In this document: positions 35,257 through 61,581 of the stretch, piece by piece
Layout: every line of letters begins with the position of its first letter
How positions within the stretch are numbered: the first letter of the stretch is position 1
Origin: an uncultured Ignavibacteria bacterium
Lineage (GTDB): Bacteria > Zixibacteria > MSB-5A5 > JAABVY01 > JAHJOQ01
Length of the DNA: 64,000 nucleotides
Assembly (NCBI GenBank): GCA_964415885.1
Contig: CAYQCE010000001.1
Location: forward strand, 8,871-72,870
Direction of reading: 5' to 3'
The notes under the pieces: model-generated
Seen by the model: the letters and a program-made list of their open reading frames with translations, nothing else
Told to the model about the DNA's origin: nothing
Database searches by the model: none
Made by a program: the position numbers and the translations under genes

Positions 35257-35317
35257 GGGCGAGCGAACGATAACGATATTAGTCTTAAGCCGTTACAGCA
35301 TTGATGGTTGGCTGCCG

Positions 35318-36295
35318 ATGTGCATAGAGAGTGGATTCAGTTGCGGGCCTGAGAAAAATCTACCTGAGGCACAAATGGCCGTGAAACAGCTTATAGTCAA
35401 GAATGCGAAGCCGGACATTGAGATTCCGGACGGCGAACATACGTCCAGCCGCGAGTGGATGTTCCGGCACGTGTTCGAGAGTGTGCCGGACCCTTTACTA
35501 CTGCTCGATACAAGCGTGCCACCGAGAATCAGAGCGTCAAATCGAGCATCAGAGGAGCTGATCAGATGCCGAGGCCGCGAATTGGTGGGAAGGTCACTCT
35601 GCGATTTTCTGGACGATCGGAATGCTGCCGTGGAGTTTCAGGAAAAGCTGGGCGCCTCGGCGAGGGATGGTGGTGATCTCGAAGTGCTGGATGTCGATCT
35701 GGTTTCCTCCGAAGGAGATCTGATACCCGTGGATGTCAGGGTTATTCCTGTGACCAATAGTGCCGGCGATCAGATTGGATGGCTCTATTCGCTTCGCAGC
35801 CAATCACGGCGTCTCCGAACGCATGAGCTTCTTTTGCACGAGAGACACAAGCTTGAGAACCTCCGCAAGGCTGTGGAGAGCAAGAATGAGGCTCTGGATC
35901 GCGTGATCCATGAGATGGAATCCGACAAAGAGCAAATCTCCGCACAGATAAGGTCCAACATAAGCAAAACTGTCATGCCGCTGGTCTCGCTTCTTCGAGA
36001 GAGGCAGCTTCCCGATGACCGGGCTTATGTTGACCTACTCGAGACCAATTTGCGGGATATCGCATCCTCATTTACCACGAAGCTCGAAACTAAGTATCCG
36101 AGGCTATCACCGCGTGAGACGGAGATTTGCCGGATGATCCGGGCGGGATTCGCGACCAAAGAGATTGCCCGTATTCTCAACGTCTCAGAACAGACAATCG
36201 GCACCCAGAGAAACCGTATCAGACGGAAACTGGGCCTCGTCAACAGTGACATCAATCTATCATCCTACCTAAAGTCCCTCGATATCGTGGAATAG
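35318..36295 (+). CDS. PAS-domain LuxR-family transcriptional regulator (paralog 1 of 3)
   Basis: PAS-like N-terminus, a conserved coiled-coil linker, and the C-terminal LuxR HTH LSPRETEICRMIRAGFATKEIARILNVSEQTIGTQRNRIRRKLGL. The start is possibly at MAVKQ (35375). Confidence 0.75.
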   Translation: MCIESGFSCGPEKNLPEAQMAVKQLIVKNAKPDIEIPDGEHTSSREWMFRHVFESVPDPLLLLDTSVPPRIRASNRASEELIRCRGRELVGRSLCDFLDDRNAAVEFQEKLGASARDGGDLEVLDVDLVSSEGDLIPVDVRVIPVTNSAGDQIGWLYSLRSQSRRLRTHELLLHERHKLENLRKAVESKNEALDRVIHEMESDKEQISAQIRSNISKTVMPLVSLLRERQLPDDRAYVDLLETNLRDIASSFTTKLETKYPRLSPRETEICRMIRAGFATKEIARILNVSEQTIGTQRNRIRRKLGLVNSDINLSSYLKSLDIVE

Positions 36296-36771
36296 CCTTG
36301 TTCGGCACAGCTCCAATGTCCCAAAGCGCGACACAACGCGTCTGGGGATCGTGTACGGCGGGTACACGATTTGTCGATGGTAATTCAATGTCAATGCTCG
36401 ATCCCGGCAGACGATACCGCTGAATAGAAGAGCATAGAAGGATTAGCTCAGGTTGCGCGGCCATTTGATACGGCGGTGTTTGCAGATAGATGCCCGGGAG
36501 AGTCGTGTATTGAGATGTATACGGATTTTGGGCAGAAACAGAAAAGGGGGTTGCACGCCGCCCTGCTGGCTTGATCATGAATTGAAGGTTGACAAACGTA
36601 TAGTTGAATTTTTCACGATGCGGGAAAGGAGGTCGATCACGGTTTCGCATAGCTCTCGCACTCTCAAAATGACTGCACTTAAGTCTCGTTATTCTCAAGC
36701 AGTTACGGTCTGGTCCAATTCGGGGAGGAAGACCGGCAAAGGGGTGTAAAAAAACAGTCAAGGAGGAAAAA

Positions 36772-38841
36772 TTGAAGTTCAGTTGGAAAGACATCAAGAT
36801 TTCCCAGAAGCTTTACATCGGCTTCGGGATTGTGCTCGTTCTCGCGATTGCGGTCGGATGGATGGGTTACTCAGGTCTTAATGAAGTTGGTCAGCGTGTG
36901 GAGAATTCCACGAAAGCCACAGAGATGGTGAAGCTGATTAAGGACGCCGCTGCTGTGCGGCAGAATTTCCTGGCGACCCATGATGTTGGCAATTTGCAGA
37001 AGGTTGAGACCATTGTTACGGAAATTAAGGGATACGAGACCGAACTCCGCGAAGTCTTCAAGGATCCGGCAGATCTCGAGCTCCTTAATCAGTGCGATCA
37101 GCTACTCGCCGAATATGTCGCCGGTTGGAAAGAGATGGTCGAGGGGCAGATCAGGATGGAGGGGTCAATCGCGAAGATGGATGTCGCTGCTGCCAACGCC
37201 GACGAGAAGGTAGATCTGCTCTTCAACAGTCAGCAGGAACAGTTTGACAGAGACATCGCGCGCAACGTCGGTGCTGAAGCTCTGAAGGAAAGAATGAAGA
37301 AGTATGGCGGCGCCGGCATACTCGTGCGCTTCATCGGCGATTGCAGGATCAACTACCGCGATTTCCGTCGAACGGAGGATATGCAGTACGCGAAAAACCT
37401 GTATGCCGCCGCAGATGCTCTCGTTGCCGAGGCGAGGAATATTCGAGGGCTGATGCGACTGCAGGAAGATATCGATCAGATCGATGGCATCATGCAGGCT
37501 GTCGGCAACTACCGCACAAACTTCGAAACCGTCGTTGAAGAGAAGCTGCATGCCGACGAGGTCCAGGCTCTGCTCGCAAGTGAAGCCGCAGAAGTTGTTG
37601 AGAAATTCGATCAGCTTGGCAGCGGGCAGCATGCCAAGATGGAAGCCGCTCAGGCATCGGCAATCACGATGGCTATTACCTTCGTGGTTGGTGCAGTCTT
37701 GATTGGTATTTTTGTCGCCTTCTTCATCTCGCGCGGCATAAGCCAGCCTGTCTCGAGAATGGCCTATATAGCCGATCAGATATCGATCGGAGATGTCGAT
37801 CACAGTATCGATTATGAGTCGAAGGACGAGATCGGTGTGCTCGCGGGATCGTTCCGAGAACTTGTCGCCTATATGAAGAACCTCGCGGGTGCTGCGGAGC
37901 GGATCGCTGACAACGACCTTACAGTCGATGTCGAGCCGAAGTCCGAGAAGGATGTACTCGGTAACTCGTTTAAGACCATGATCACGAGTCTCCGTCAGAT
38001 AGTTCGCCAGCTCACTGACAACGCCAAGGAACTTGTCAGCGCTGCTACCGAGATAGCATCCGCATCCGAGCAGATGTCCCGTGGCGCCAAGGATCAGGCG
38101 GACCAGGTGGGCCAGGTTTCCACGGCCATCGAAGAGATGACCGCGACTATCGTCGAGTCGTCCAAGAATGCCGGTGAGGCGTCCGATCTCGCCAGGGGAG
38201 CATCGGATACCGCAAACAACGGTAACAATGTCGTGGCGCAGACGATTCAGGGTCTTGCCAAGATCACCGACTCTGCGCAGAACACGAGCCAGATAATCGG
38301 GGAGCTCGCGAGTGCCTCCGACAAGATCGGCGAGATCATCGGTGTTATCGATGATATAGCTGACCAGACCAATCTGCTCGCTCTGAATGCCGCGATTGAA
38401 GCGGCGCGTGCGGGCGAACAGGGTCGCGGCTTCGCCGTGGTTGCCGACGAGGTTCGTAAGCTCGCAGAGCGGACCGGGAAGGCGACCGGAGAGATTACCG
38501 ACATGATCAAGGGTATCCAGCGTGACTCCAACGGTGCTGTTGAAGCAATGAATTCCGCTGGTGAACTGGTCACTGAAGGGCAGGATTTTGCCAATCAGGC
38601 CGGTGATTCGTTGAACGAGATTCTCGGAATGTCGCAGAAAGTCATGGATATGATCCAGATGATTGCGACCGCTTCCGAGGAGCAGTCGACCGCTGCCGAG
38701 CAGATATCCAGGAATATCGAGCAGGTGTCGTCGATCACGAAGGAAACCGCAACAGGTGCGGAGCAGTCCGCCGCTGCTGCTGAGGAGCTGAATCGCCAGG
38801 CCGAAGGCCTTAAGACTATGGTCGGCAGATTCACCGTATAG
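36772..38841 (+). CDS. Methyl-accepting chemotaxis protein (4HB-type N-terminus, HAMP, MCP signalling domain)
   Basis: TTG start after AAGGAGG. The N-terminus is [30 protein letters not shown]. The highly conserved signalling tip is [47 protein letters not shown]. Confidence 0.9.
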
Positions 38842-38900
38842 CAATCAATTCGCTTCGATCCCGGAGCGTAGTGCTCCGGGATTGAGGTTGGGAGGGATCT

Positions 38901-39413
38901 ATGCCAGAGAAGGAAATTACGAGCGGCAGTGTCAGGGCGCAGGATGTAGATAATACCTCCGTTGACGAACTCCTTCAACTCGTCTCGTTTCGCATTGGTG
39001 AAGAAATGTTCGGAGTCGATATCCTGAAAGTACAGGAAATCAACCGTCTGACTGAGATCACCAAAGTTCCGCAGGCGCCGAGCTTCGTTGAGGGTGTGAT
39101 AAATCTGCGTGGCAAAGTCATCCCAATTATCGACATTCGCAAGCGATTCGGCATGAGTCTGAAGGAGTGCGACAAGGACACCCGTATTGTAGTTGTGGAT
39201 ATCGAGACATCGGTCATGGGTATGATCGTCGACGCGGTTTCGGAGGTCCTGAGGATTCCGGCAACAACCGTTGAACCGGCTCCGGATATCGCAACATCCG
39301 TATCGTCGGAATACATTAGAGGCGTCGCAAAGCTGGAAGACAGATTGCTCATTCTGCTGGAGCTGGGTAAGATATTCAGCGAGGCTGAACGAGAGATCAT
39401 GTCGAGCTTCTAA
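38901..39413 (+). CDS. cheW: Chemotaxis coupling protein CheW
   Basis: 170 aa, LVSFRIGEEMFGVDILKVQEINRLTEITKVPQAPSFVEGVINLRGKVIPIIDIRKRFG, a canonical CheW domain. Confidence 0.9.
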   Translation: MPEKEITSGSVRAQDVDNTSVDELLQLVSFRIGEEMFGVDILKVQEINRLTEITKVPQAPSFVEGVINLRGKVIPIIDIRKRFGMSLKECDKDTRIVVVDIETSVMGMIVDAVSEVLRIPATTVEPAPDIATSVSSEYIRGVAKLEDRLLILLELGKIFSEAEREIMSSF

Positions 39414-39627
39414 GCCCGCCGCTTATGCACTTGAAATCGGGCCCCGGTTGAACAAGCTGCAGCCGGGGTTCGGAAGCTGTTTGGTGTCTTATTAGACAGC
39501 CTCCTCTCTTATGTCGATGACCTGACCGCCACGAAATAATATCATTGTTACCCCGCCCTAATATTCTACTAATATTTCGGTGCGATCTTTGCCGTGACAC
39601 CAAAACAAGGGTACGTACTGGCAGCTC

Positions 39628-39668
39628 AAACCTCCTTTCGTTCAACGATCGGAGGTTTTTTTCTTCTC
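39628..39668 (+). terminator. Rho-independent terminator
   Basis: The stem aaacctcc...ggaggttt is followed by tttttttcttc. Confidence 0.6.
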
Positions 39669-39745
39669 CTGTTCAACATTCGAACACCTTGTGCCGACAT
39701 CTATGAAGTGAGACGCAAGCTGCGAACCAGGGCGCAGGAGTCAGA

Positions 39746-41155
39746 ATGCCACTTGATACGTTCGGAGTAAAAAGTTCAAATCCGGCAGCGAAAACCATGA
39801 GATCATTTTGTGCAAGGCAACATTCGCGAATCGAGGCGTTTCGCTTACTCGAAATCGAGAATTCCGAGTTGAGGCACTCCGGCATCTCGCTTCTCGCGGA
39901 CATAGCCCTGGAGGCAGGCAGTGAGAGTGGCTCCCGACGTCAGATGGTCGAGAGGCTGACTCATGTCATACGGAGCTATGGGGATTGGCTTAGACTTACG
40001 TCAGCCGAAGTGCGCTACTACAACGAAATCCTCGCGGATCGCCTGGCTGTACGCTCCCCTGGCAGCTTCGAAGCGGACATTGAATCTGAGTGCGGGGAGG
40101 CGGGGCGGCTTTTACTGTCGTTCAACGAAGATTTCGCTCGCCGATTCAGATCATGTCTCCAGAGTCTCACCGACGCGTGTGCCGCCGCCGTATCACTCAA
40201 GCTCTTTGATTTCGAAAAGATGCTCGATGATCGTGCCGAAGTCGAACGGCTCTCTCTGGCGGTCCCGGGCGAATCCCGAAAGCTGGCGGAGATTGCGGGG
40301 CAACAACGCGAAGAGAATAAACGCAGGGAAACGGCCGAGGCGGCCCTTCGCGAATCCGAGGAGTTGCATCGTGTTACTCTCGGCAGTATCTCCGACGCGG
40401 TCTTCTTAACCGACGACGACGGTCGCTTTACGTATGTTTGTCCGAATGTCCACGTGATTTTCGGTTATGATCGCGACGAAGCGAGAGCACTTGGATCGAT
40501 CGACAAGCTCGTCGGCTGCGACTTGTTCTCGATAGATGCGCTGGAGGAAGTCATGGAAATCGAGAACATCGAGCGGGGAATACTCGACAAGTACGGCCTC
40601 ATGCACTACCTGTTGATAAATGTCAAGCGCGTCTCCATTCTGGGCAGCACGGCGCTAATCACATGCCGCGATATTACGGGCCGAAAGAAGGCGGAGGACC
40701 AGCTTAGAGAAATAAACTCCAAGCTCGAAGCGGAACGGTTCGCGCTGAGAGAGAAGAACATCGTCCTGAAGGGCGTGCTGGAGGAAATCGACGGTGAAAA
40801 GAAGCTGATCGAGCGCCGGGTGCAGTCCAACGTTGATCGAGTTATCCTCCCGACTCTTCGTCTCATCCGGAGCCGACTGAATCAGTCCGACAGCGAATAC
40901 GCGGACCTTCTCGAACGTAATCTCCGTGACGTAGTCTCCCCCTTTGTATCCGAACTGGAATCACGATGCCAACGTCTCGCGCCCCGCGAACTCGAGATAT
41001 GCAATCTCCTGAGAATGGGTCTCTCCTCGAAAGAAATAGCCGATTCACTCACGATCTCGGTTCATACGGTAAACAAGCAGCGTCAGCGCATCCGAAAGAA
41101 GCTTGGATTAGCCAACACAAATCTCAATCTACCGACATTTCTGAAATCGATGTAA
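39746..41155 (+). CDS. PAS-domain LuxR-family transcriptional regulator (paralog 2 of 3)
   Basis: PAS region VTLGSISDAVFLTDDDGRFTYVCPNVHVIFGYDRDEA. The same coiled-coil linker as the other paralogs, with the LuxR HTH LAPRELEICNLLRMGLSSKEIADSLTISVHTVNKQRQRIRKKLGL. Confidence 0.8.
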   Translation: MPLDTFGVKSSNPAAKTMRSFCARQHSRIEAFRLLEIENSELRHSGISLLADIALEAGSESGSRRQMVERLTHVIRSYGDWLRLTSAEVRYYNEILADRLAVRSPGSFEADIESECGEAGRLLLSFNEDFARRFRSCLQSLTDACAAAVSLKLFDFEKMLDDRAEVERLSLAVPGESRKLAEIAGQQREENKRRETAEAALRESEELHRVTLGSISDAVFLTDDDGRFTYVCPNVHVIFGYDRDEARALGSIDKLVGCDLFSIDALEEVMEIENIERGILDKYGLMHYLLINVKRVSILGSTALITCRDITGRKKAEDQLREINSKLEAERFALREKNIVLKGVLEEIDGEKKLIERRVQSNVDRVILPTLRLIRSRLNQSDSEYADLLERNLRDVVSPFVSELESRCQRLAPRELEICNLLRMGLSSKEIADSLTISVHTVNKQRQRIRKKLGLANTNLNLPTFLKSM

Positions 41156-41460
41156 CAGTCTGAAACGATTGCACGATTCTCCTGCGTAGCTCTCGAACGT
41201 TGTTCGCTCGAGAATGAGTACGCATTGTACTCAAGTAGTAGGCAAAGTTGTCTTATTAACCTCAGTGAAAAATGGTCGAAATGAACAATAAATAAACCAT
41301 AAACGAACCGAATATCGTTCGGATTAGGCTCTGCGTATCCGGTCAGGGCTATTGCAGAATTCGAACCCAACGAACTGACATTGACTGCGCACAGCACAAT
41401 TGAGATTGTCGCCATTGGGATTGATGACCGTCGCAGTCGAGTAACGCAAGGGGAGGGCAA

Positions 41461-43635
41461 GTGTTCAAAAACCTGAAAATCAACACCAAGCTCATCGCGA
41501 TCTTCATGCTGATCGGATTAGTTCCGCTCATCACAGCCGCGATGATCTCGCTCAACAACAGCTCCGCTGCACTCGAGGAATCAGCGTTCAATCAGTTGAT
41601 CTCGCTTAGAGATGTCAAGAAGGGGCAGGTCGAGAATTACTTTGGGGAACGTCTCGGAGATGTCTCCGTGCTGTCCACCAATCCAACCGTGCTCGCTGCG
41701 CTGAAAGCCTACGAAGCCGGTTTCGACAATGGTGGGGTAAACGGAGAAGCTTGGAAGAGCGCGGATGAGACATACTCAAAGTGGTTGACACAGTACGAGA
41801 AGGAGTACGGTTACTATGATCTGTTCCTGATCTCGGCTGACGGAGATATTGTCTATACGGTTGAGAAGGAGCCGGATTTCGGTACCAACATCGTCAACGG
41901 TCGCTTTTCCAACGAGAACATTGCAGAGCTTTTTAGTAAGGCTCGGACCAGTGTGTCGATGGTAGACTTTGCTCCATACGCGCCTTCCAACGGTGCCGCC
42001 GCGTCATTTGTCGGTGCTCCCGTCCGTGACGAACACGGGCAGTTCATCGGCGAGGTGGCCCTCCAGCTCCCGCTCGATCGAATAAACGCCATAATGCAGG
42101 AGAGGAGCGGACTCGGTGAATCCGGCGAGACATACCTTGTCGGTAAGGACCTATTGATGAGATCTGACTCGAGATTTTCCAGGGAATCTACCGTCCTGAG
42201 CCAGAGTATCGAGACAGAGACCGCCCGCGACGCCATAGCCGGAAATTCGGGTGCGGAAATAGTCAAGGACTATCGCGGAATAAACGTTCTCTCTGCGTAC
42301 GCTCCGCTGGTTGTCGGGGGAATGCAGTGGGGTGTCCTGGCGGAGATCGACGAGGAAGAGGCATTCGCGAAAGTCGCCGCACTCCGTAACTCGATAATCA
42401 TCCTCGGAGTGATTCTTGCGCTGATCGTGGCAGTTGTTGGCTGGTTTTTCGCGAGAAGCATCTCCAGACCAATCACGGAGATCTCGACAGCGGCCGAGAA
42501 GATCGCAGTTGGCGATATCGATCAGTCGATTACGATCCGGTCCGGTGATGAAATCGGTATTCTCGCTGACTCATTCCGGAGTCTGATCGAGTATATGAAC
42601 AGCCTGTCTCGGGCAGCGCAGTCTATTGCGGATAACGATCTCACGATTTCTGTAGAGCCGAAGTCCGAGAAGGATGTCCTCGGGCAGTCGTTCAAGACAA
42701 TGATTCGGAATCTGACAGGAGTCATTCGCCAGTTGACGGACAACGCCCGTGAACTCGTAGCAGCGGCTGGTGAAATAGCAAGTTCGTCCGAACAGATGTC
42801 TCGCGGAGCCAAGACCCAGTCGGATCAGATGGGGCAGGTCTCATCGGCCGTTGAGGAAATGACTGCTACTATAGTGCAGAGCACGAAGAACGCTTCGGAA
42901 GCGTCCGAGGCTTCGCAGGGGGCATCGTCGACTGCTCAGGAAGGCGGCACAATCGTCTCCGACACAATACAGGGCATGCAGCAAATATCTGACACAGTTC
43001 GCGAGTCAGCAGAATCGATCAGCAAGCTCGCCCAGTCGGCAGAGCAGATAGGTGATATTATCGGCGTGATTGATGATATCGCCGACCAGACGAATCTCCT
43101 CGCTCTGAATGCCGCAATAGAGGCAGCCAGGGCCGGTGAGCAGGGCCGCGGGTTTGCGGTTGTTGCCGATGAGGTCAGAAAGCTCGCCGAGAGAACGGGT
43201 CACGCCACGGGCGAGATCACGGAGATGATACGAGGCATTCAGGGAGAGACCGAGGATGCGGTCAAGTCCATGAAGTCCGGTATCGAGCAGGTCGATCAGG
43301 GCCGTGGACTTGCGGATCAGGCCGGCAACAGCCTGACCGAGATTGTAGGCATGGCGAACCGCGTCGTAGATATGATACAGCAGATTGCCACAGCGAGTGA
43401 GCAGCAATCGGCAGCCGCGGAACAGATCACCAAGAATATCGAAGAAGTATCGAACATCACGCGAGAAACGGCGTCGGGCGCTGAGCAGTCCGCAACCGCT
43501 GCGGAAGAGCTCAATCGTCAGGCTGAAGGTCTACAACAGATGATCGGTCGATTCCGCGTGAGAAATGACGAGATCGAGAACCGCGTTACTGAAGAAACTG
43601 CAAGCGTGGAACCCGGCAGAGTTGTGACGGATTAG
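41461..43635 (+). CDS. Methyl-accepting chemotaxis protein with a periplasmic Cache-like sensor, HAMP and MCP signalling domain
   Basis: GTG start, then N-terminal [34 protein letters not shown] ~280-aa periplasmic region ends at a second TM. The cytoplasmic domain is a close paralog of the MCP at 36772-38841, sharing the tip [47 protein letters not shown]. Confidence 0.9.
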
Positions 43636-43928
43636 CAGCACGGAAGTGAAGGACTTTGGGCCATGGATGCGGATCAAGTGCGATCCAAGCCTGGACTGAA
43701 GCAGAATACTCGATAGAATGACCTCAAGCGTTTTCCAGTTGACGGTTTCCAGCTTGATCGGGGCGGCTCTCTAAAGGCCGCCCCACCCCATTAAACCTGC
43801 TGAGGTACTCGGTAGGGATCGACAGCCAATATCTATAGCCTTGATCCATGATACACTAAAAGACCTTGACTTTGACGATCCTCCGGCTACACTGTAACTG
43901 ACAGGCCCCATATTCGTCTTTCCCATCT

Positions 43929-46298
43929 GTGCGGCAGCAGAGCTGTACGGGGCCGAAGAAGAAGGACAAAATGGACACCGCCGATAACGAGTCTTCCGGT
44001 GAAGATCGACCGGGTGATTACAAGACTGCTTACCCGGTCGGCGGCTCGCGGTCGAAGCTCGACTACTACGCAGATCTCCTCGAGAACGCACCGATAGCAT
44101 ACCAGTCACTCGATGCGAACGGTCGTATACGCGACGTAAACGATTACTGGTGTTCGCTCCTCGGCTATCATCGGTCGGAGGTGATTGGCCGGGCGTTTGC
44201 GGAGTTCATTCCATCACCGTTCCTTCAGACCTTTCGGTCATCTTTCCGAAAGTTCAAATCTCATGGATCGATATCAGACAGAGAGTTCGATCTGGTTAGC
44301 AAGAGTGGCAAGATACTGACAGTCTCTTTCGACGGCCAAGTCCAGTGCGATAGCTGTGGAGACTTCATCTGCACACATTGTATAATGCGAGACCTGACCG
44401 ATCAGCGGCGGGCGGAAGCGGAGTCGCGCGATTATTCGGTGAAGCTGTCCAGTTTCATAGAGTGCTCGGACAGCATCCTTGTCCTGCATGATCTCGATGG
44501 AAACTACCTGTACTTCAACGGACCCTCTGTTTTTGGTGTCGATCAGGAGTCGATCGTGGGGAAATCGGTCAGAGACCTTTTCAGCAATGAAGAAGCGGAA
44601 CGGCTCATCGAGCAGATTCGCGAGGTTGCGTCCTCGCGCCGTGCGCTTCAAGCGGAAAACTCTGTCGAGTGGGACGGCGATAGACTGTGGTTCCTGGATC
44701 ATGTATATCCCGTGATCGACGACGACGATGAAGTACGGCGCGTCGGCAAAGTCTGCCTTAATATTACTGCTCTCAAGAAGAAGGACCTGCTGCTTGAGGA
44801 GGCCAATTCCCGGCTCAGAACAATAATCGACAGTGTAAAGAGATCGTTCGTTCTCTTGGATTCAGACTACAGCGTAATCATGGCAAATGGAGTCGCGAAA
44901 GATACAACTCGCCTGATGTTAGGCAGAGAGATCAGCGCAGGAGATGCGATTCTGGAGATTATTCCGTTGTCGGACAGGGGAGATTTTGAGTCATACCTTC
45001 GGTCTGCCTACAAAGGCAAGTCGGTGACGATTGATAGAATGCGAATCAATGACTATGACGAGAAGAACTGGTATCGGTTCAGCTTCCATCCCGTGGGGAC
45101 TGATAAGGGAGGAACATCGTGCGTCTGTCTGATGGTCGAAGATGTCACGTATGAACACCGTTACTTGACCGAGGTCTCCCGATTAGATAAGCTCGAGTCG
45201 GTCGGAGGTCTCGCCGCCGGAATAGCACATGAATTCAACAATGTCCTGAGCGGGATAGTGGGCAGCCTGTCTCTGCTGAAGACAGACCTCGACATCCACT
45301 CGGATGGCTACGCTATCGCTATGGAGGCAGAGAAGTCGGCGGCTCGCGCGCGCAGGCTGACGGAGCAGTTGATTACTTTCTCTCGCGGCGGGCATCTCGT
45401 CAAATCTGCGTGTCTTGTCGCTGATATTGTGGATGAAGCCCTGGAGTATGCATCCCTCGATTCGAGTATAAACGTGAAACGGGAGATTGCGGGTGATATT
45501 TGGTCGGTGGCAGCGGACTCAAGCCAGCTTGCGGAGACATTCCTGAATCTGCTTCTAAACGCAGAACAGGCTATGCCGGTGGGTGGCTATGTAACCATAA
45601 CAGGTCGAAACATCGAGATAGACAGTTCCTCCGGCATCCCACTGGATGATGGCAGATATGTCTCGATCTCCGTGGCCGACAGCGGAGTTGGAATTTCGGC
45701 GGATAAGGTCGACAGGATCTTTGATCCGTTCTATTCCACGAAGAAGTTGGGACACGGCCTGGGGCTGACAGCGAGTTATGCAATCGTGCGTCGTCACGGG
45801 GGGCATATAACCGTGGAATCTACGCCGTACCTCGGCTCGCGATTCACAGTCTACCTTCCGGCTTCAATCGAACCAGCCAATCGCAATGAGATATTGAGGG
45901 ATCTCCGCGCACAGTCCGCCTGTCGTATACTGTTCATCGATAATGAACCCGCGATGTGTCGCTTCGCCAGATTGACATTGAGTTCGCTCGGCTATGATGT
46001 CACGATTGTCTCGGATGCACTCGAGGGAATATCGATGCTTGAAACGGCAGTTCGTTCAGGTGTCCGATACGATCTTGTGATTCTGGATGTCGATGATCCG
46101 GACTGTGCACTCGCGACGGAGACTCTTCGGAAGCTCAAGAACCTTGACTCGAATGTTCCGGTGCTCGCGACGTGTCATGATCCGGACGCGCATCTTTTGC
46201 GCGATTACGATGAAACAGGCTTCTCCGGCGCCCTCGCAAAGCCATACTCTGTTTATCAACTCGGCTCAGAAGTGAGCCGGGTAACTGCTCGCTCGTAG
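43929..46298 (+). CDS. Hybrid sensor histidine kinase (PAS domains, HisKA, HATPase_c, C-terminal receiver-like domain)
   Basis: H box LAAGIAHEFNNVLSGIVGSL. ATPase motifs DSGVGI and GHGLGL. The C-terminal REC-like region is ILFIDNEPAMCRFARLTL...DLVILDVDDPD. The start is possibly at MDTADNE (43971). Confidence 0.8.
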   Translation: MRQQSCTGPKKKDKMDTADNESSGEDRPGDYKTAYPVGGSRSKLDYYADLLENAPIAYQSLDANGRIRDVNDYWCSLLGYHRSEVIGRAFAEFIPSPFLQTFRSSFRKFKSHGSISDREFDLVSKSGKILTVSFDGQVQCDSCGDFICTHCIMRDLTDQRRAEAESRDYSVKLSSFIECSDSILVLHDLDGNYLYFNGPSVFGVDQESIVGKSVRDLFSNEEAERLIEQIREVASSRRALQAENSVEWDGDRLWFLDHVYPVIDDDDEVRRVGKVCLNITALKKKDLLLEEANSRLRTIIDSVKRSFVLLDSDYSVIMANGVAKDTTRLMLGREISAGDAILEIIPLSDRGDFESYLRSAYKGKSVTIDRMRINDYDEKNWYRFSFHPVGTDKGGTSCVCLMVEDVTYEHRYLTEVSRLDKLESVGGLAAGIAHEFNNVLSGIVGSLSLLKTDLDIHSDGYAIAMEAEKSAARARRLTEQLITFSRGGHLVKSACLVADIVDEALEYASLDSSINVKREIAGDIWSVAADSSQLAETFLNLLLNAEQAMPVGGYVTITGRNIEIDSSSGIPLDDGRYVSISVADSGVGISADKVDRIFDPFYSTKKLGHGLGLTASYAIVRRHGGHITVESTPYLGSRFTVYLPASIEPANRNEILRDLRAQSACRILFIDNEPAMCRFARLTLSSLGYDVTIVSDALEGISMLETAVRSGVRYDLVILDVDDPDCALATETLRKLKNLDSNVPVLATCHDPDAHLLRDYDETGFSGALAKPYSVYQLGSEVSRVTARS

Positions 46299-46455
46299 TG
46301 GGGTTGATAAACTCCCAGCCGAATACATCATCAGTGAAAACACTTGATTTGCGGTAGACTGTAGTGCTCTGAGGGTTCGGAATACAGACAGATACAACCA
46401 CAAGCTCGTAGCCAACTAACGGATTATTGGAGTTGGATATTTTTGCGCGTATCAG

Positions 46456-46490
46456 GACGGGAGCCCCAAAAGGGCTCCCGTTTCTTCTAT
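46456..46490 (+). terminator. Rho-independent terminator in a convergent intergenic region
   Basis: gacgggagccc-caaaa-gggctcccgt forms a 10-bp perfect stem followed by ttcttct. Confidence 0.6.
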
Positions 46491-46516
46491 CTGCAACGCT
46501 CTGATCGACTTGTCGA

Positions 46517-49500
46517 TCAGTCGCAATCCGCGCAAGGATCTGCTCCACCCTGGAAGACATGCTCGATAATGTATACGACATCATCGATATCTACCGAGTC
46601 GGAACAGTTGACATCACCGGACTCAGGCGGCACCGGATCAGCACCACCCTGGAAGACATACTGGATGACGTAGACGATATCGTCAATGTCGACACCTTCG
46701 CTTTCATCAACGTCGCCGCACACAAACGTCTCGATAACGAATGACATCGTATCAGAGCCGCAGAAGTCATGAGCGGCTACCGAGATTGTCTCAGTCGATC
46801 TGGCATCCGGTACAGTACCGGTTACCGTGTCATTCTGGACTGTCGACCAGGCGGGAACGCTCAGGAACTCCAGTGTGATCTCGGTGTCGTCCGGATCGGT
46901 TACAACCGGTACAAACATGAGCTCCGAACCGTTATACATTGCTTCGTCGTCCACCTCTGCTATCGACGGCGGTACGTTCGAGTGGTCAATGTCAATTGTA
47001 ACGAGTAGCGTATCATTGAGCGAACCATCGCTGACAATGACCGTAAAGAGCGTATCTTCGTGATCACAGCCCGCTGTTCCAGTCACCGTAACATCTGTGA
47101 GAGAACACCAGCTTGGCAGATTCTCAACGGAGAATGTGAGTTCGGTGCCGTCACAGTTGTTGTCGTTGGCGGTAGCTGTGTAGCTGAATTCCTCACCGGG
47201 CTCGAGTCCAATGTAAGATTCAGAGGATATAGTCGGAGCCTGGTTGTGGAACTGCGGATCACAGCAATCATCTTCCGGATGATCAGGACAATCGTCGCAA
47301 ACATCGCCTGCACCGTCCTCATCCGAATCGAGCTGGTCTTCATTCGGAGTAGTCGGGCAGTTGTCTTCGTCGCAGGTGTTGGCCGCGTAACCCGGATTTC
47401 CATAGCCGTCGCCATCGGTGTCTGTGCATTCGTCACATACGTCTCCGATGCCGTCACCGTCGGCATCCGCCTGATCCTCGTTCGCGATTGACGGGCAGTT
47501 GTCCTCATCACAGTTGTTGGCTGTGTATCCGGGATCGCCGTATCCGTCACCGTCGGTGTCTGTGCAGTGATCGCATGCGTCTCCGATACCGTCGCCATCG
47601 GCGTCAGCCTGATCTGCATTCTCGACGTTCGGGCAGTTGTCGGTATCACATGTGTTATGCGGGAAGCCCGGATCACCGAATCCGTCACCGTCAGAATCCG
47701 TGCAGACGTCGCACGAATCGCCTATGCCGTCGGAATCGGCATCTTCCTGGTTCGGATTGTAGACATCCGGACACACATCACAGAGATTACCGATACCGTC
47801 AGCGTCAGTGTCTTCCTGCTCCGGATTAGAGACGATCGGGCAGTTGTCGAGAATGTCGATGATACCGTCGCCATCCGTGTCAGTCTGGTCGTCACACTCA
47901 TACAGATTGACCGTGAAACCGTCGACGCCGGATTCGTTGATTGACTGAGGATCGCCGTCATTGGCTGTGAATCTGACGCGCATATCGGAAGTCATCGTTA
48001 CGCCTGCGGCGGATAGCGCAGCGGCGTCAATCTCGTGAAATCTCCATAGGAGACCGCCGTCGGTGTTGTGATTCGCAATCTGAGTCCACGGTCCGGAGAG
48101 GCCGTTGCTGCTGATCTCAACGAGCAGCTTGTCGGTCCCGTCCGTGTTTGTCAGTCTCAGGAAATAGTAGTACGAAATCGAGGCGATTCCGTTCGCCATA
48201 TCCAATGTTGGTGAGATGAGAGTCACCGAGCCATTGTCAACATCAGTGTTACCGGATGTGTTCTCAGTGAGGAAACACTGTCCGCTTCCATCGCCGTCTG
48301 ATGCGGGATCATAGTCCCAGCTCCCGTCGTTGACCGGTGTTCCTCTCTGCCAGTATCCGCTTGTTGCGCCGCTGTAGGAGGTTGTCCAGCCCTGATCGCT
48401 TTCGAAGTTGTCGTCGATGACATTTGTGAAGCTGGTGGCAACAATAGTCGTGAACGCCGATGAAGGCGCATCAGCCGGATCGGATACAGTGCCGAATCCG
48501 CTCGCTTCGGCGGTGACGTACCATGAGATCACGCTCTCGCAATCGGCTGCCGGAAGGATAGCATCGTAGTGATCCGGCGAGGTTTCGGTCATGGTCCCGG
48601 ATACGTACGGCGCTCCATCGATCGAGTAGAAGAGCTGTCCGCTACCCGGCGTGGGAGCGACGGCGTTATCATTTATGACAACCTCGACCGTTGTGGTCTG
48701 GTTCGGCATCACTGTCTGAGGTCTGCCATTCGGATACTCGAACAGAATCGGGCTCAGCTCGGGACAGTCCATGTTGTGGGCGCCGAAGCCGGCACAGATT
48801 TCAGGATAATGCGGCGTGCCGTTGTCAAGGTTGGCGTCGTCATCATCGAGAGTCAGCCAGTCGATCGTGATCTGCGGTGTAATGGATGTACCCGTGTGAA
48901 GCAGTATCGAGTTGATCGATAGATCGGCCAGGATTGTAATATAATTCGGGTAGTTTCCGATGAGCTCGTTGCGCGTGCTCCAGACACATCCGGAGTAGAG
49001 CTGGCCGCAGTAGTGAATTGCGCCGGAGCAGGGGTACTGGAACGTGTTATCCGCATTTCTCAAAGCCTCGGAGCAACTGCCGTAGAAACCCAGACCGAGC
49101 TCTGGTGAATCCGATAGCAATAGCGACATGATATCGCTGGTACCCTCACCATACTCGCCCTGTCCGCTGCCGCCTACATTGACGAGGTGGTGGCCATATT
49201 CGTGATGAATCACGCTCGACCACGCCGTGTTGGGATGTCCGCTTCCTTCCTGACAGAAGTTGATGGAAACATCGCCGGGATCATACCACGCGTTGCCGGG
49301 GCAGTAGAAATCGTTCCTGTTCACATATACCGGGAAGTTAGACTGGGTGGATACCTGCGGATAGCTCGGGTTGACCTCAATCACAAGGTCGCGAATCTCG
49401 TTTGGTTCAATGTAGCCGTTGACCTGAGCACGAATGAGCGGGTCGGTGTTTGCGGTGTTGTGCTGGAAATCTGCAGGTCCCGGAGGCGTGACAATGCTGC

Positions 49501-50488
49501 TCAAGCCAACATCGCTTCCAGCGTAGTTATAGACATTGAAGTACTGCCCCTTCAGGACAGACTCGACCGTCACCTGGCCGGTTCCGCCATTCGAGATCGT
49601 GTAGTTGCCGTTTTCGTCGGTGTATGCGGTGGTTGCACCGATGCTTACTTTGGCGTAAGGGATCGGCGTATCGATCTCGTCCTCACAATGCTCGGCCCCA
49701 TGACCCTCGGTACCGAGACCCGATACATGGCCCGACACATCCTCGAAGATTATTCTGTCTTCGCTATACAGGATTTCACCGGTCTGAGCATCCGATACGA
49801 ACAGCCACTGTTCGCCGTTGTCACCGTAACCCACAAACTCCAGGGCGAGGCGGGGCTGTTCGGCTTCAACTCCGTCGTAGCCGGCCCAGACTTTAGTTGT
49901 CGGGTCGGTGAACCGCGTCATCTCAGGCATTTCGAGGCGTACAACCCGCTTGGCCGTTTCGAAGTCAGTCGCGAATCGATCCGGCACTCTGAAATCGCCG
50001 ACATCCCACATCGATGACACGGCGAGTACGAGCGGATAGCTCGGCTCGTTGCGCACGAGGAGCCTGAGTTCCGATCTGAAGACCGGGACGTTGTCGACGT
50101 ACTGACGGTAATAGACTAAAGTGAACTTGTAGCTGTCCTTCAGCCTGTCGTACATTAGCTGTTGCGTGCGGCGCTTGTCAGGCATCCTGCTCTCCGGAAC
50201 GAGCTGAGCGCTCTTCGCTCCGACCACAGCGGAGTGTCTCTGGACGAAACCTTCCGCCGATGCCTCCGGGCTCGATCCGAACGAGAACGGCGCGCCGTAG
50301 ATTCGCGTAACCTTGCCAATATCATCGTAGACCTTGATATTGGGGAACTCGCCGCGCAGACCCTGCAAAGCTGTCCGCGCTCGATCCTGCTTTCCGGACA
50401 TCTCCTCCTGTCCGAAAACTGTCGAGATGGACACCAGGAGCAGGACGGCAAGTACAGTAATCACCGTAAGATTTAGCACTCTCCTCAC
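46517..50488 (-). CDS. Large secreted zinc metalloprotease (HEYGHH, M6/immune-inhibitor-A-like) with ~8 thrombospondin type-3 repeats, Ig/cadherin-like domains and a C-terminal dockerin-like domain
   Basis: 1323 aa. Signal peptide [27 protein letters not shown]. HExxH context [18 protein letters not shown] long run of TSP3 motifs ([55 protein letters not shown]...) follows. The C-terminus reads [23 protein letters not shown]...[22 protein letters not shown]. Confidence 0.75.
47300..47890 (-). repeat. Intragenic tandem repeats encoding calcium-binding thrombospondin type-3 motifs
   Basis: Repetitive nucleotide blocks (gatgccgatggcgacggtatcgg..., tgtgcagacgtcgcacga...) encode reiterated DxDxDGxGDxCDxC..NxxQxDxD units inside the 46517-50488 CDS. 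They are coding repeats, not CRISPR. Confidence 0.8.
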
Positions 50489-50983
50489 GTTGTCTCTCCT
50501 TGTTTGGGATTACACTTGTACCGAAATATGGATAGGTGGATATATTTTGCAATATAGAGAACATAGATTATACTGCTTCGGCTGGTACAGGCCGCTGTAG
50601 AGAACATGAATGTATCAAAATAATCTCAGGCGGCTCAATACGTACTGTATGAGGCCGGAGATGGGTAACCTGATTTGCCGTAACCTAATCAAATATAAGA
50701 TCAAAATGCGATTTGTCTACCAAAAAAGCCGATTTTATTCTACCGGTTCAGTCCATGTTTGGTTTGGACCCGATTGTTGAACTCCAGCGAGAGGACTTGA
50801 AATGTTAGAATTAACTTATAGATGCAGGCTGAACGCTGGTCTGCGCCGGTTGACGTATCGAGATTCAACTATGCGGACAGTTTGCGACTGAGGATTACGT
50901 CCGGTCCAGGCCGGAACCTCGACAGTCTTCACCGTGTTAACAGGTCTGAGTCATATAATCACTACAGTTTGGAGGGAGTGCTG

Positions 50984-51394
50984 ATGGACTCAGTGTGTGT
51001 AAACTACTGGGCTGTGCTTGTGTCGGCTGCGGCATATTTCGTGCTCGGGGCCGTGTGGTATTCGCCGGTGATGTTCGGGAATGCCTGGATGAAGCTCCTG
51101 GGCTGGACAAAGGAGCAGGCGCAACAATATTTCTCGCCTCGGAAGCTTGTGTTCGTGTTCGTGCTGTCGCTTTTTGTGGCGTACGGTATCGCGCGGATAC
51201 TCTGCTGGACAGACCTGGAGCCGCTCTGGGGCGGGTTTGCGATCGGACTTACAGCCGGGCTGAATTTCGTAGCCCTCGCGTTCGGCATCAACGATCTCAT
51301 GGAGGCGCGGCCGGTCAAGCTGTTTCTGATCAATGCCGCCTATCACCTGATCGGTTTCGTGGGAATGGGGCTGATAATAGGAGCCTGGCGATAG
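50984..51394 (+). CDS. DUF1761-like small integral membrane protein
   Basis: An ATG after GGAGGG gives MDSVCVNYWAVLVSAAAYFVLGAVWYSPVMFGNAWMKLLGW..., four TM helices. The ORF track's 50822 start is probably upstream of the true start. Confidence 0.55.
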   Translation: MDSVCVNYWAVLVSAAAYFVLGAVWYSPVMFGNAWMKLLGWTKEQAQQYFSPRKLVFVFVLSLFVAYGIARILCWTDLEPLWGGFAIGLTAGLNFVALAFGINDLMEARPVKLFLINAAYHLIGFVGMGLIIGAWR

Positions 51395-51420
51395 GAGAGA
51401 TGTGCAAAGCTGCGAATTAG

Positions 51421-51450
51421 AAACGGGAGCCAGGCGGCTCCCGTTTTGAC
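51421..51450 (+). terminator. Rho-independent terminator
   Basis: aaacgggagcc-aggc-ggctcccgtttt, a 10-bp stem, tetraloop and U-tract, 27 nt after the stop of the DUF1761 gene. Confidence 0.7.
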
Positions 51451-51525
51451 TGCAAATTCGATTCTCACTCTACAGGATGATCCAGGTAGTTGACCACGGT
51501 GATCACCCCCGGCTCACAATCTCGC

Positions 51526-51554
51526 TTGACATCAGGGCTCGCGGGGGGTATAAT
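51526..51554 (+). promoter_or_regulatory. Perfect-consensus sigma70-type promoter (TTGACA-N17-TATAAT)
   Basis: TTGACA at 51526-51531, a 17-nt spacer, and TATAAT at 51549-51554. The predicted TSS is ~51561, about 320 nt upstream of the PAS-LuxR gene at 51877. Confidence 0.5.
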
Positions 51555-51589
51555 TTTCACATAGACCAAACAGCGCCGATAGTCTCAGA

Positions 51590-51625
51590 CAAAAAAAGGC
51601 CTCACTCTTATCAAGTGAGACCTGT
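51590..51625 (-). terminator. Terminator-like hairpin oriented on the minus strand (A7 run + imperfect 9-bp stem), with no annotated minus-strand gene upstream
   Basis: aaaaaaa-ggcctcact-cttatca-agtgagacc. Read on the minus strand this is a hairpin followed by U7. Confidence 0.3.
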
Positions 51626-51876
51626 ATGGACGACTGAATGTCGAGTGTAGTCTATCTAAGTTGCGTGATCGAGCCGCCCGAAAGCTTGTTGCACCTTACA
51701 TAATGAGTTTACGGCCAGTCCGCAAAATAGTCAACAGGTGATTATCGCGTATATCGGTGCGTATTTTTGGTCTTGCCTCGAATGCTGTTCTGTCGTCGCT
51801 CGATTCGGCGTCGATGTAATCTATTGATAACTAACAGTGTGCGAGGCCCAGACATTATCACACACCGATTGGAGGT

Positions 51877-53457
51877 TTGGTTGTGCGAACCGGTGAGGGG
51901 CCGCATGGGGTGCTCGCAGACTGGCTTCCGGATGCGCTGGCTGTGATTCAGGATGGCCGGTGCGTCTCATTCAACGCTGCATTCGCAGAGCTTCTCGGCT
52001 ACGAGCGTGATGAGCTGAATGACAATCCTCCCGTGGACAATCTGCTCCGACCGCGTGGCATCAGCACCGTACAACAGTGGCTCGAAGCTGCCGGACGCAA
52101 CACGGAGTTGAACCGTATCGAGCGAGTCGACGCTGTGAAGAAAGGCGGCGACCTGGTAGCCTGCGATATCACCGTCAAGCCTGTTGAATTCGAAGATCGG
52201 CCTGCGCACGTTCTACTAATCCGTGATGTCCGCGAACGTGAAAGGGCAGAGCGCGATCTCAAGGTTACTGAGGAGCAGTACCGCCTGCTGATAGAGAGCC
52301 AGGAATTGTCTGTGCTCTTTTACGATACCGAGGGCACTCTTCTGTTTATTAACGACACTGCGGCAATGAATATGGGCGGGAAGGCATCCGACTTCACGGG
52401 CCGCCATATCACCGATCTCTTCCGGGATGACGCAGACTTGTTTATGAAACGCCAGAAGATCGTGGCGGAGTCTGGGGAGAGCATGGTCTCGGAGGACCTG
52501 ATCGGCTTTCCGGGCGGGAGCAGGTGGTTTCTATCGACGCTGCAGCCGGTGATTGACGACAATCAGAAGCTGGTCGGAATCCAGATAGTCTCGATCGATA
52601 TCACCGAGAGGAAACTCGCCGAAGAGAAATATCGCCAGACTAATGCCCAGCTTCAGGCTACGCTCAATGCGCTGCCGGATCTGATGTTCGAGGTCGACTG
52701 CGACGGGTTGATCTATGATTTTCGTGCGCCCCATCCAGAGTTACTCTACAGGAAACCGGAAGAGTTCGTGGGGCAGACATTCGCGGATGTCATTCCGGAA
52801 CCGGCGGCTTCGCTTATCATGGGGGCTGTTGAGGAGGCCGCGGCTACCGGGCAGAGCAAAGGTACCGAGTATTCGCTCGAGATGGCGGGCGAGCAGTACT
52901 GGTTCGAGCTGTCTCTTGCAGTTAAGGGTGATCTCCGCAGCCGCGACTGTCATCTGGTTGCGTTGGTTCGCGATATTACGGATCGCAAGCACAGCGAAGA
53001 GAAGCTCAAACTCCTCGCCGATGACCTGATGGCTGAGAGACGTGAATTGACAGAAAAGAACGTCGCCCTCAAGCAGATACTGGATCATATCGAGAGCCAG
53101 AAGAAGGATATGAAGCAGGAAATCTACCAGGATATCGAGAATGGAATTTTCCCGATACTCAGTTCCCTTCGGAAACAGATAGATTCGAAGCACTACGATC
53201 AGCTCGAGAGATTCGAATCCGAGGTTCGTACGCTGCTGTCGCTTGATCGGGATGAGTTCCGCAAGCAGTATGGCAAACTCACATCTCGGGAGTCGGAAAT
53301 CTGCGATCTGATCAAGACTGGCATGTCCTCGAAGCAGATAGCAGACCAGCTAAATCTCTCTATTCTCACCGTGCTGAAGCATCGCGAGAACATTAGGCGC
53401 AAACTCGGAATCTCCGGTACACAGTTGAGCCTCGCCACCTACCTTAGATCGAAGTAG
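51877..53457 (+). CDS. PAS-domain LuxR-family transcriptional regulator (paralog 3 of 3, two PAS domains)
   Basis: 526 aa. Two PAS regions (VIQDGRCVSFNAAFAELLGYERDEL; LFYDTEGTLLFINDTAAMNMGG), the conserved coiled-coil linker, and the LuxR HTH LTSRESEICDLIKTGMSSKQIADQLNLSILTVLKHRENIRRKLGI. The start is TTG at 51877 or GTG at 51883, after GGAGG. Confidence 0.8.
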   Translation: MVVRTGEGPHGVLADWLPDALAVIQDGRCVSFNAAFAELLGYERDELNDNPPVDNLLRPRGISTVQQWLEAAGRNTELNRIERVDAVKKGGDLVACDITVKPVEFEDRPAHVLLIRDVRERERAERDLKVTEEQYRLLIESQELSVLFYDTEGTLLFINDTAAMNMGGKASDFTGRHITDLFRDDADLFMKRQKIVAESGESMVSEDLIGFPGGSRWFLSTLQPVIDDNQKLVGIQIVSIDITERKLAEEKYRQTNAQLQATLNALPDLMFEVDCDGLIYDFRAPHPELLYRKPEEFVGQTFADVIPEPAASLIMGAVEEAAATGQSKGTEYSLEMAGEQYWFELSLAVKGDLRSRDCHLVALVRDITDRKHSEEKLKLLADDLMAERRELTEKNVALKQILDHIESQKKDMKQEIYQDIENGIFPILSSLRKQIDSKHYDQLERFESEVRTLLSLDRDEFRKQYGKLTSRESEICDLIKTGMSSKQIADQLNLSILTVLKHRENIRRKLGISGTQLSLATYLRSK

Positions 53458-53665
53458 CTGAACAGACTCTACCAAAAAAGAAGCGGCCGGCGAACTGAGA
53501 GAACGCCGACCACAGATCCAGTCCTATTTCGCCCTGAGGATAGGGCATTGGTAAGCAATTTGAAGACAGTACTAATAACGTCCGTTTATAGCAATAGTCA
53601 ACGTGGCGTTATTACGTATTTGACTGCGTATACTTACTCACAGCACGTTAACCGTTTCCTGACAG

Positions 53666-53705
53666 GCGGCTTGCGTCCCGTCGAGAACCGCCATCCCGGC
53701 TTTTT
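53666..53705 (+). terminator. Possible terminator (weak stem plus T7 run) downstream of the PAS-LuxR gene
   Basis: ...ggcggcttgcgtcccgtcgagaaccgccatcccggc followed by ttttttt. Confidence 0.3.
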
Positions 53706-53816
53706 TTGTTGATTTTCGTTCCTGATTGCCGTTGCGTTGGAGGATAAATTCGGATTCTGAATGCCATAACCGGGCGAGCACTAAAGAAGTCGTTCAGGTT
53801 TTTTGAATCGATCGGC

Positions 53817-61449: not shown

Positions 61450-61581
61450 TTCCGGTGTCTCCCCAGGTTGCTGTTCTCGCGACTGCGCAACGTATCGGCG
61501 CCGGACGAGGGATGCTGGTCCGGCACCGACCTGTTTATTCATATGTATCCGGATCGATAGCCCGCTTACAGGCAATCGTGT

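Follow-up and report, generated by a model that had tools for sequence, protein, structure and literature searches.

Chemoreceptor repertoires are usually regarded as part of a fixed flagellar regulon, and FliA-type promoters are classically controlled via an anti-sigma factor. Inducible chemoreceptor genes under pathway regulators are also known, NahR/nahY and PcaR/pcaY in Pseudomonas being examples; NahR and PcaR are catabolic regulators, of LysR or IclR type, which the receptor gene has in common with a pathway. The PAS-LuxR regulators of Streptomyces (PimM, PteF, NysRIV, AmphRIV) are proteins of 152-243 amino acids (aa) in which the PAS domain and the helix-turn-helix (HTH) are almost contiguous, and the PimM-type operator, CTVGGGAWWTCCCBAG, is a palindrome near the -35 element of target promoters (PMC9774167). 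The subject here is a stretch of 64,000 nucleotides (nt) from an uncultured bacterium (contig CAYQCE010000001.1, positions 8,871 to 72,870 of the forward strand; hereafter the window, with coordinates counted from its first nucleotide) in which three genes, R1, R2 and R3, encode PAS-LuxR proteins. Two of them, R1 and R2, lie directly upstream of genes for methyl-accepting chemotaxis proteins (MCPs). What is new is a conserved cassette of regulator, operator-like element, (sigma-28-like) promoter element and chemoreceptor, together with a widespread module of helical linker plus HTH that has no domain model. A limited literature search found no papers on PAS-LuxR genes paired with chemoreceptor genes, and none on the linker module.

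The cassette is best seen in its two spacers. The first separates R1 (35318-36295, + strand) from MCP1 (36772-38841, +) by 476 nt (36296-36771) and the second separates R2 (39746-41155, +) from MCP2 (41461-43635, +) by 305 nt (41156-41460); each holds a candidate operator and a candidate promoter. GTAC-N5-GTAC occurs twice in the window, at 36353 and 41218, against 0.27 occurrences expected. Both sites are in the regulator-MCP spacers, beginning 57 nt past the R1 stop and 62 nt past the R2 stop, and both extend to GTAC-N5-GTAC-N7-GTNN, with the third half-site at +11 nt. Candidate operator 1 (36350-36376), delineated by motif scan and by comparison with related loci and one orthologous spacer (L082), reads CGTGTAC-GGCGG-GTACACG-ATTT-GTCG. 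Candidate operator 2 (41215-41241), found by motif scan and also the best-conserved block of its spacer relative to a second orthologous locus (L150), reads TGAGTAC-GCATT-GTACTCA-AGTA-GTAG.

The element recurs elsewhere. In 68 related loci from species-representative genomes (designated L with a number), open reading frames (ORFs) were called and the gene directly downstream of each family member was identified; a 4-sequence alignment of the linker-HTH module served for the locus scan, a 7-sequence version being too diverse. The same element stands 22-47 nt past the regulator stop in L002, L003, L004, L009 and L021; it has one mismatch in L011 and L082, and in L048 it is inverted and upstream of the regulator. 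The palindrome anchors a longer architecture, GTAC-N5-GTAC-N7-GT(A/C)N-N14-T(T/C/G)(A/C)(A/T/G)-N15-(G/T)(A/T/C)CGA(T/A/C)(A/T)N, found again in at least 8 related loci. The distance from operator to promoter motif is invariant, and the CGA is present, in 7 of 7 loci.

The downstream part of this architecture resembles a sigma-28 promoter, for which the -35 element is TCTAAAG (TAAA core) and the -10 element is GCCGATAA at -15 to -8, with a 15-nt spacer between them (PMC12784957). Candidate promoter 1 (36391-36417, +) consists of the -35 element TCAA (36391-36394), a 15-nt spacer and the -10 element GACGATAC (36410-36417), with transcription of the MCP1 unit predicted to start near 36425 (+). 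Candidate promoter 2 (41256-41282, +) consists of TTAA, a 15-nt spacer and GTCGAAAT, with a predicted start for MCP2 near 41290 (+). The spacing is exact, the -10 8-mers match sigma-28 at 5-7 of 8 positions, and the -35 elements match at 2-3 of 4. This layout places the operators at about -72 to -49. A sigma-70 scan and a terminator scan of both spacers found nothing.

Divergence of the orthologous spacers picks out the same elements. Between the window and the L150 spacer the longest conserved block is GAATGAGTACGnATTGTACTCAA...TTGTCTTAT(T/C)AAC, followed by a divergent 15-nt spacer and a conserved GTCGAA(A/G)TG; the L082 spacer shows the same pattern around GGATCGTGTA(C/T)...GTACACGATTTGT, TCAA and AGACGATA. 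Operator, -35 and -10 are kept in both orthologous spacers, while the 15-nt spacer and the remaining intergenic sequence have diverged. (A 12-mer, GCRTAGCTCTCG, present at 36647-36658 and 41184-41195 and only in the two spacers, was tried as a shared motif and set aside: the L150 spacer has not kept it, local alignment of the two spacers falls short of significance (52 of 500 shuffles), and its sharing is probably due to chance.) Conserved DNA elements and their spacing are, like domain content, synteny and family size, matters of direct observation.

The sites also go with particular regulators. The recognition helices of regulators beside GTAC sites all read KQRQR, KLRQR or TQRN(R/K), and GTAC sites are absent beside regulators of the clades whose helix reads NQRK, KHRE or RHR. 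At L021(-), a regulator with an NQRK helix is accompanied by half-sites CTAT, ATAG and ATAG, whose three offsets from a promoter motif, TTGT-N15-TCCGAAAA, are exactly those of the GTAC architecture; the MCP downstream of it is the closest dCache relative of MCP2. R3 (51877-53457, +), whose recognition helix is KHREN, has a repeat of its own: CGTAT-N7-CGTAT occurs twice in the window, against 0.08 expected, and both copies flank R3. The first (51726-51764, +) lies upstream and reads AATAGTCAAC-N12-CGTAT-N7-CGTAT; the second (53593-53631, +) lies between R3 and a SAM-methyltransferase gene (53817-54653), and the two copies (~40 nt) align without gaps. This arrangement suggests autoregulation and control of the downstream methyltransferase gene, R3 presumably acting as R1 and R2 would, on a different operator that flanks its own gene and precedes the methyltransferase gene. 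The tracking of the site with the regulator gene, the correlation of helix with site, L021(-) and the R3 repeats together argue that each regulator recognizes the site beside its own gene.

The pairing of regulator and MCP has been kept in evolution. Among the related loci the gene downstream of the regulator is on the same strand in 46 of ~63 cases, usually after a gap of 150-500 nt, and MCPsignal is the commonest Pfam family of the immediately downstream gene (10/63), followed by CZB and GreA/GreB-like proteins (4/63 each). MCPs account for only 3 of the remaining 562 ORFs in these loci (Fisher p=1e-8), and those three sit three genes downstream of a regulator. At least 6 distinct lineages have the pair (L002-4, L017, L019, L021, L025/26 and L046). 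The two orthologous loci are closer still. L082, which came from a metagenome scan that otherwise gave mostly distant relatives, has the gene order of the window (E1-beta, E1-alpha, EamA, R1, MCP1, CheW) with a different gene after cheW, and identities of 58% for R1, 70% for MCP1 and 75% for CheW. L150 has the order CheW, R2, MCP2, then a partial ORF where the window has a kinase, with 77% identity for R2 (protein P0271) and 91% for MCP2. An earlier note, made from the sequence of the window alone, had named synteny in relatives beforehand as a test, and the pairing is indeed kept in L082, in L150 and in more distant Zixibacteria-type genomes.

Several arrangements of these related loci may be recorded in their own right. 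In two Zixibacteria metagenome-assembled genomes (L025, 3734-10763; L026, 3468-8432) regulators and MCPs alternate in tandem (regulator-MCP-regulator(-MCP)), as in the window; the two MCPs of L025 are sisters in the tree and its two regulators are not. In L032 (8721-13402), L036 (9040-13628) and L007 (5585-9703) two genes intervene between a regulator and an MCP. In L032, the sole such locus scanned, they encode a DcaP-like outer-membrane protein and a Peripla_BP_6 binding protein, and the arrangement suggests regulator-controlled operons for uptake plus sensing. In the Spirochaetota loci L038, L044, L050, L056, L057 and L059 small genes recur just downstream of the regulator. A downstream GreA/GreB-like gene was confirmed for L056, CZB is a zinc-binding domain, and genes of these two kinds may constitute further classes of target.

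The mechanism that these observations suggest to us is as follows. The N-terminal sensor domain or domains, here PAS, would run straight into a very long amphipathic helix on which a shorter helix folds back, and the hairpin so formed would carry the C-terminal NarL/RcsB-like LuxR HTH. R1 and R2, dimeric or in higher oligomers, would each bind an operator of three half-sites (GTAC-N5-GTAC-N7-GT(A/C)N) that covers about -72 to -49 of the sigma-28 (FliA)-like promoter of the downstream gene or genes, MCP1-cheW for R1 and MCP2 for R2. Expression of a receptor would then require both the motility sigma factor and the appropriate signal state of its private PAS regulator, which, judged from the position of its operator, would be a class-I-type activator. 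We infer the binding by the adjacent regulator, the sigma factor, the sign of regulation and the sensed signal from the comparisons given above. Dedicated PAS-sensing transcriptional control of chemoreceptors, which the earlier note had proposed, thus draws support from the conserved pairing and from an operator-like element at a fixed distance from a promoter-like element. Control of the MCP promoter by its neighbouring regulator via the GTAC element, whether by activation or by repression, we regard as probable; towards the specific version with an activator and sigma-28 we lean, though only slightly.

A number of observations pull the other way. The match of the -35 elements to sigma-28 is weak, the T alone being invariant; there is no fliA gene among the genes of the window; and the predicted 5' untranslated regions are long, ~347 nt for MCP1 and ~171 nt for MCP2. 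The regulators of L006-8, L013 and L018 have the KQRQR helix and no GTAC site within 500 nt. One GTAC-class site stands before a porin gene rather than a motility gene, which agrees less well with a FliA regulon. Phylogenetically the loci are not independent (L002 and L003, for example, are near-duplicates), and the link to MCPs is rare (1/49) among more distant metagenomic family members, so that the pairing belongs to a subfamily. The R1 palindrome might double as a terminator, given the strong hairpin described below, and every functional claim comes from sequence.

Repression at the same operator is the alternative that shares most with activation by R1 and R2. The regulator, as repressor or roadblock, would block read-through or upstream-element contacts until a PAS signal released it, and the MCP promoter would then fire. 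LuxR-type proteins do repress in some systems, the operators lie directly past the regulator stop codons, where they could halt read-through from the regulator genes, and no canonical terminator follows R1 or R2. Activation is favored over repression, in our judgment, because an operator upstream at about -72 to -49 is clear of both the -35 and the -10, a position typical of activators, and because weak -35 elements suggest dependence on an activator; repression is accordingly rated as rather unlikely. The GTAC element might alternatively bind some other factor, for example a global motility or envelope regulator, in which case the PAS-LuxR neighbours would regulate other genes and their adjacency would reflect co-inheritance. 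Binding by the adjacent regulator is, after all, our reading of the DNA, and although the genes next to GTAC-class sites are MCPs in five loci, L021 has a porin gene in that place, and L009 and L011 have genes of unknown function. The element nevertheless tracks the regulator gene and not the target: it lies 22-62 nt from the regulator stop in 9 loci with different targets, and in L048 it adjoins the regulator. Its presence also goes with the type of recognition helix in the regulator, the other clades have repeats of another sequence at those offsets, and R3 has its private repeat; a third-party factor appears improbable. We think just as poorly of the notion that the palindromes work in RNA, as hairpins that terminate or attenuate transcription of the regulator genes, with the MCP genes controlled from elsewhere. 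The R1 palindrome does fold at -17.9 kcal/mol (z = -3.8), with UUUGU just after it, and between loci flanking positions co-vary in such a way as to preserve the palindrome. Yet the hairpins of R2, L004 and L150 are weak (-8 to -10 kcal/mol, no better than shuffled sequences) and no U tract follows them, the terminator scan was empty, and the canonical terminator that closes the MCP1-cheW unit (39628-39665, +; a GC-rich hairpin with U7, -15.3 kcal/mol, z = -2.9) looks different. Moreover, the sequence of the GTAC cores is itself conserved, the hairpin includes neither the third half-site nor the promoter motifs, which keep fixed distances from it, and the L048 element is inverted and upstream of a gene.

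A different question is how the window came to have two cassettes. The earlier note had described them as a tandem duplication that yielded near-identical MCP paralogs with cytoplasmic domains ~85-90% identical. An MCP does follow both R1 and R2, all on the same strand, and both have the domains of an MCP (MCPsignal scores of 180 and 186 bits, HAMP, plus HBM or dCache_1), but the cytoplasmic domains measure 62-65% identical (global) or 70% (local) and the entire proteins 41-43%. The one place where identity rises to 88% is a 40-aa segment at the hairpin tip, a part conserved throughout the MCPs of one class. If the regulator-MCP cassette had recently been duplicated in tandem, that would account for the gene order, operator type and promoter architecture that the two copies share, and in a crude neighbor-joining (NJ) tree the signalling domains of MCP1 and MCP2 are weak sisters. 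In the tree of the regulators, however, R2 groups with L002-4 and R1 is a lone deep branch. R1 and R2 are 27% identical overall (44% in the C-terminal module) and MCP1 and MCP2 43%, against 77% for R2 and 91% for MCP2 with L150, and 58% for R1 and 70% for MCP1 with L082. The MCP2 signalling domain is nearer to those of L002-4 and L021 than to that of MCP1, and its dCache domain is 63% identical to that of the L021 MCP. The periplasmic sensor domains of MCP1 (HBM) and MCP2 (dCache_1) have different, unrelated folds; likeness between the cassettes at the DNA level is negligible, a single 167-nt patch at 71%; and L082 holds cassette 1 without cassette 2. R2 and MCP2 are, in short, nearer to other genomes' genes than to R1 and MCP1. 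Since each cassette has a closer orthologous locus elsewhere, a recent duplication is not supported, and we consider it very improbable. The shared design of operator and promoter points instead to a common, ancient origin of the cassette type: on this sequence evidence the units of regulator, operator, promoter and MCP appear to be old, mobile-in-evolution cassettes of Zixibacteria-like genomes, not recent local duplicates. The earlier observation is real but overstated on similarity, while its regulatory hypothesis gains substantial computational support.

The regulators themselves are as the earlier note had them in most respects. All three + strand ORFs are confirmed, and each encodes PAS and a C-terminal GerE/LuxR HTH at scores above curated cut-offs: 47.1, 39.4 and 47.8 bits for GerE (PF00196; gathering cut-off 23.5) in R1, R2 and R3. 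R1 (325 aa) has one PAS domain (~48-160; Pfam PAS_4, 32.7 bits), a long helix with a return helix (~147-250) and the HTH at 263-309. R2 (469 aa) has a PAS domain (202-320) for which only NCBIfam sensory_box passes (44.3 bits, cut-off 22.9), Pfam PAS falling narrowly under its cut-off; the helical linker and LuxR HTH follow. Its likely start is 39797 (M18, giving 452 aa), as chosen by gene callers. R3 (526 aa), 8 kilobases further along than MCP2, has three PAS domains above cut-off, then the helical linker and LuxR HTH; it falls in a different clade of the linker-HTH family in the NJ tree and has no adjoining MCP. The R2 PAS domain is 55-66% identical to the PAS domains of many histidine kinases, a hint that its ligand pocket may be conserved. 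The ~185 aa that precede it (39746-40300) match no Pfam or NCBIfam family, have as their sole homologue the orthologous protein P0271 of L150 (77% identical), and may be a lineage-specific sensor domain. Exact-sequence look-ups gave no match for R1, nor for R2 with the longest-ORF start.

Pairwise identity of the regulators (34-44%) is confined to the C-terminal 140-184 aa, with no recognizable likeness N-terminal of that. The helical segments and the L(S/A/T)(P/S)RExEIC motif to which the earlier note had drawn attention are found in all three, alignable over ~150 residues. The linker had been called heptad-like; across 92 homologues the hydrophobic repeat peaks at 3.6-3.67 residues and not at a clean 3.5, as would suit a bundle of straight helices and not a classic heptad coiled coil. 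In the AlphaFold2 (AF2) model of R1 (pLDDT >90 over residues 160-320) the PAS domain leads into an 83-residue helix, a 19-residue helix then turns back, and the four-helix HTH follows. The HTH is closest to RcsB, NarL, FixJ and EL222, with NarL, RcsB and VraR among its fold matches, and Foldseek found matches only for the HTH.

No Pfam or NCBIfam model covers the ~95-aa linker. A profile of the linker only (96 positions, HTH excluded), in an exhaustive search of clusters at 50% identity, found 4,945 clusters at E<=1e-3 and 646 at E<=1e-10. Among the 150 matches listed, all stop ~60 aa short of the C-terminus and so leave the room that an HTH requires; the proteins are 161-1,526 aa long, with N-terminal lengths that vary widely. 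In word-indexed searches the N-termini are PAS, GAF, receiver or unknown (some family members, unlike R1-R3, having a receiver domain), and stand-alone linker-HTH proteins of 140-170 aa also occur. The linker-only profile has no match in the PDB; for the module profile the best solved-structure match is 3CLO (E=3e-14, profile positions 58-144). R1-R3 are most likely one-component transcription factors belonging to a large family whose linker has no domain model, and the helical hairpin is probably a dimerization and signal-transmission module. The hairpin topology of the AF2 model is like that of the dimerization and phosphotransfer (DHp) domain of kinases, and it is possible, judged by topology, that the linker works as a DHp hairpin does. 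Homology is not claimed, the sequences showing no match: a DHp (HisKA/HisKA_3) origin finds no Pfam or NCBIfam support, hhalign with the DHp of the neighbouring kinase gives a probability of 0.5%, and the invariant His is absent from the alignments.

As to the rest of the window, CheW (38901-39413, +; Pfam CheW, E=1.8e-40) starts 59 nt past MCP1, with which it is probably co-transcribed. In Pfam terms MCP1 consists of an HBM-type sensor, HAMP and MCP signalling domain, and MCP2 of a dCache_1 sensor, HAMP and MCP signalling domain; the next gene after MCP2 encodes a hybrid PAS histidine kinase (43929-46298, +). Opposite-strand ORFs at 36252-36797(-) (181 aa) and 41083-41460(-) (125 aa) span the two regulator-MCP spacers. 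Neither is called as a gene on the matching Logan contig (the window's sole Logan match, used for gene calls), and both are probably spurious. Rfam gave no match at E<=1 over 35000-54800. The nearest relatives suggest a Zixibacteria-type (FCB-group) genome of a kind known from metagenomes only. A CHAT-TPR protein overlapping a subtilase gene (9368-14076) is followed by a protein with a type IX secretion (T9SS) Por_Secre_tail sorting domain (14267-15838), which is consistent with an FCB-group (Zixibacteria-like) origin. The 1,210-aa PAS histidine kinase at 16169-19801 (+) ends in a CheX (chemotaxis phosphatase) domain, an unusual fusion that joins two-component and chemotaxis signalling. Two predicted proteins of identical length, 1,323 aa each, are encoded at 46517-50488 (-) and 54832-58803 (-), one with TSP_3 repeats, the other with LamG, He_PIG, PKD and dockerin domains; they are alike only over the C-terminal ~90 aa (59% identity). 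More LamG/He_PIG giants lie at 58867-63960.

A receptor gene with its own sensor-regulator, operator and promoter would turn the question of which receptors are made, and when, into a modular and testable one in an uncultivated phylum. GTAC-N5-GTAC-N7-GTNN, and CGTAT-N7-CGTAT for R3, are concrete candidate sites for such tests, and with a domain model for the linker-HTH module thousands of "LuxR family" proteins would be better annotated. We offer, as a tentative reading, that the hairpin plus LuxR HTH may be an undescribed and very widespread output module, turning sensor arrays in the style of histidine kinases (PAS, GAF, receiver) into direct DNA binders, and that its Zixibacteria-like subfamily may serve as private, signal-gated co-activators of FliA-type promoters, retuning receptors individually through PAS by redox, oxygen, light or metabolite cues. 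On that reading, and no more firmly, the module would be represented by thousands of clusters in Zixibacteria, Desulfuromonadota, Omnitrophota, Spirochaetota and others. Activators at FliA-type promoters would, if real, be unusual, anti-sigma factors being the classical means of control there, and signal-gated co-activators would let the cell retune its chemoreceptor repertoire receptor by receptor.

How, then, does this locus compare with the systems that have been described? Like the PimM family, R1-R3 combine an N-terminal PAS and a C-terminal LuxR HTH in one polypeptide, and PimM-type proteins are likewise local, pathway-specific regulators. Unlike that family, R1-R3 are 325-526 aa long, have the ~95-aa helical hairpin between the domains and are associated with a GTAC-type candidate operator; the targets, chemoreceptor genes for R1 and R2 as proposed here, are polyketide clusters for PimM-type regulators. 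CTVGGGAWWTCCCBAG has no match with <=2 mismatches in the window and one with 3, inside a distant coding sequence and below chance expectation, and membership of the Streptomyces family is rejected on size, domain contiguity and operator alike. EL222, a light-activated transcription factor, is also a one-component PAS-family sensor joined by a helix to a LuxR HTH, the HTH matching in sequence and fold, but its Jalpha helix is single and short and its core is a flavin-binding LOV domain, where R1 has its 83-residue helix and return helix. The LOV cysteine motif NCRFL is absent from the R1, R2 and R3 translations, so these are not LOV-HTH proteins. With NarL, FixJ and RcsB, R1-R3 share the DNA-binding domain (HTH identity to RcsB reaches 41-46%), and those regulators also bind multiple short half-sites ~9-11 bp apart. 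Input in R1-R3 would be direct, via PAS, and not by phosphotransfer: no Response_reg (receiver) domain is matched by Pfam in any of the three, which are therefore not response regulators. The match to 3CLO, a putative regulator of Bacteroides thetaiotaomicron with a LuxR DNA-binding domain and unknown function, runs from the HTH into the second linker helix and does not cover the long first helix. Parallels in concept are NahR/nahY and PcaR/pcaY, where, as is proposed here, a dedicated transcription factor decides whether a given chemoreceptor is made. What sets the present locus apart from them is a private PAS-LuxR gene directly upstream of each MCP, with the candidate operator in the spacer and the pairing repeated across genomes.

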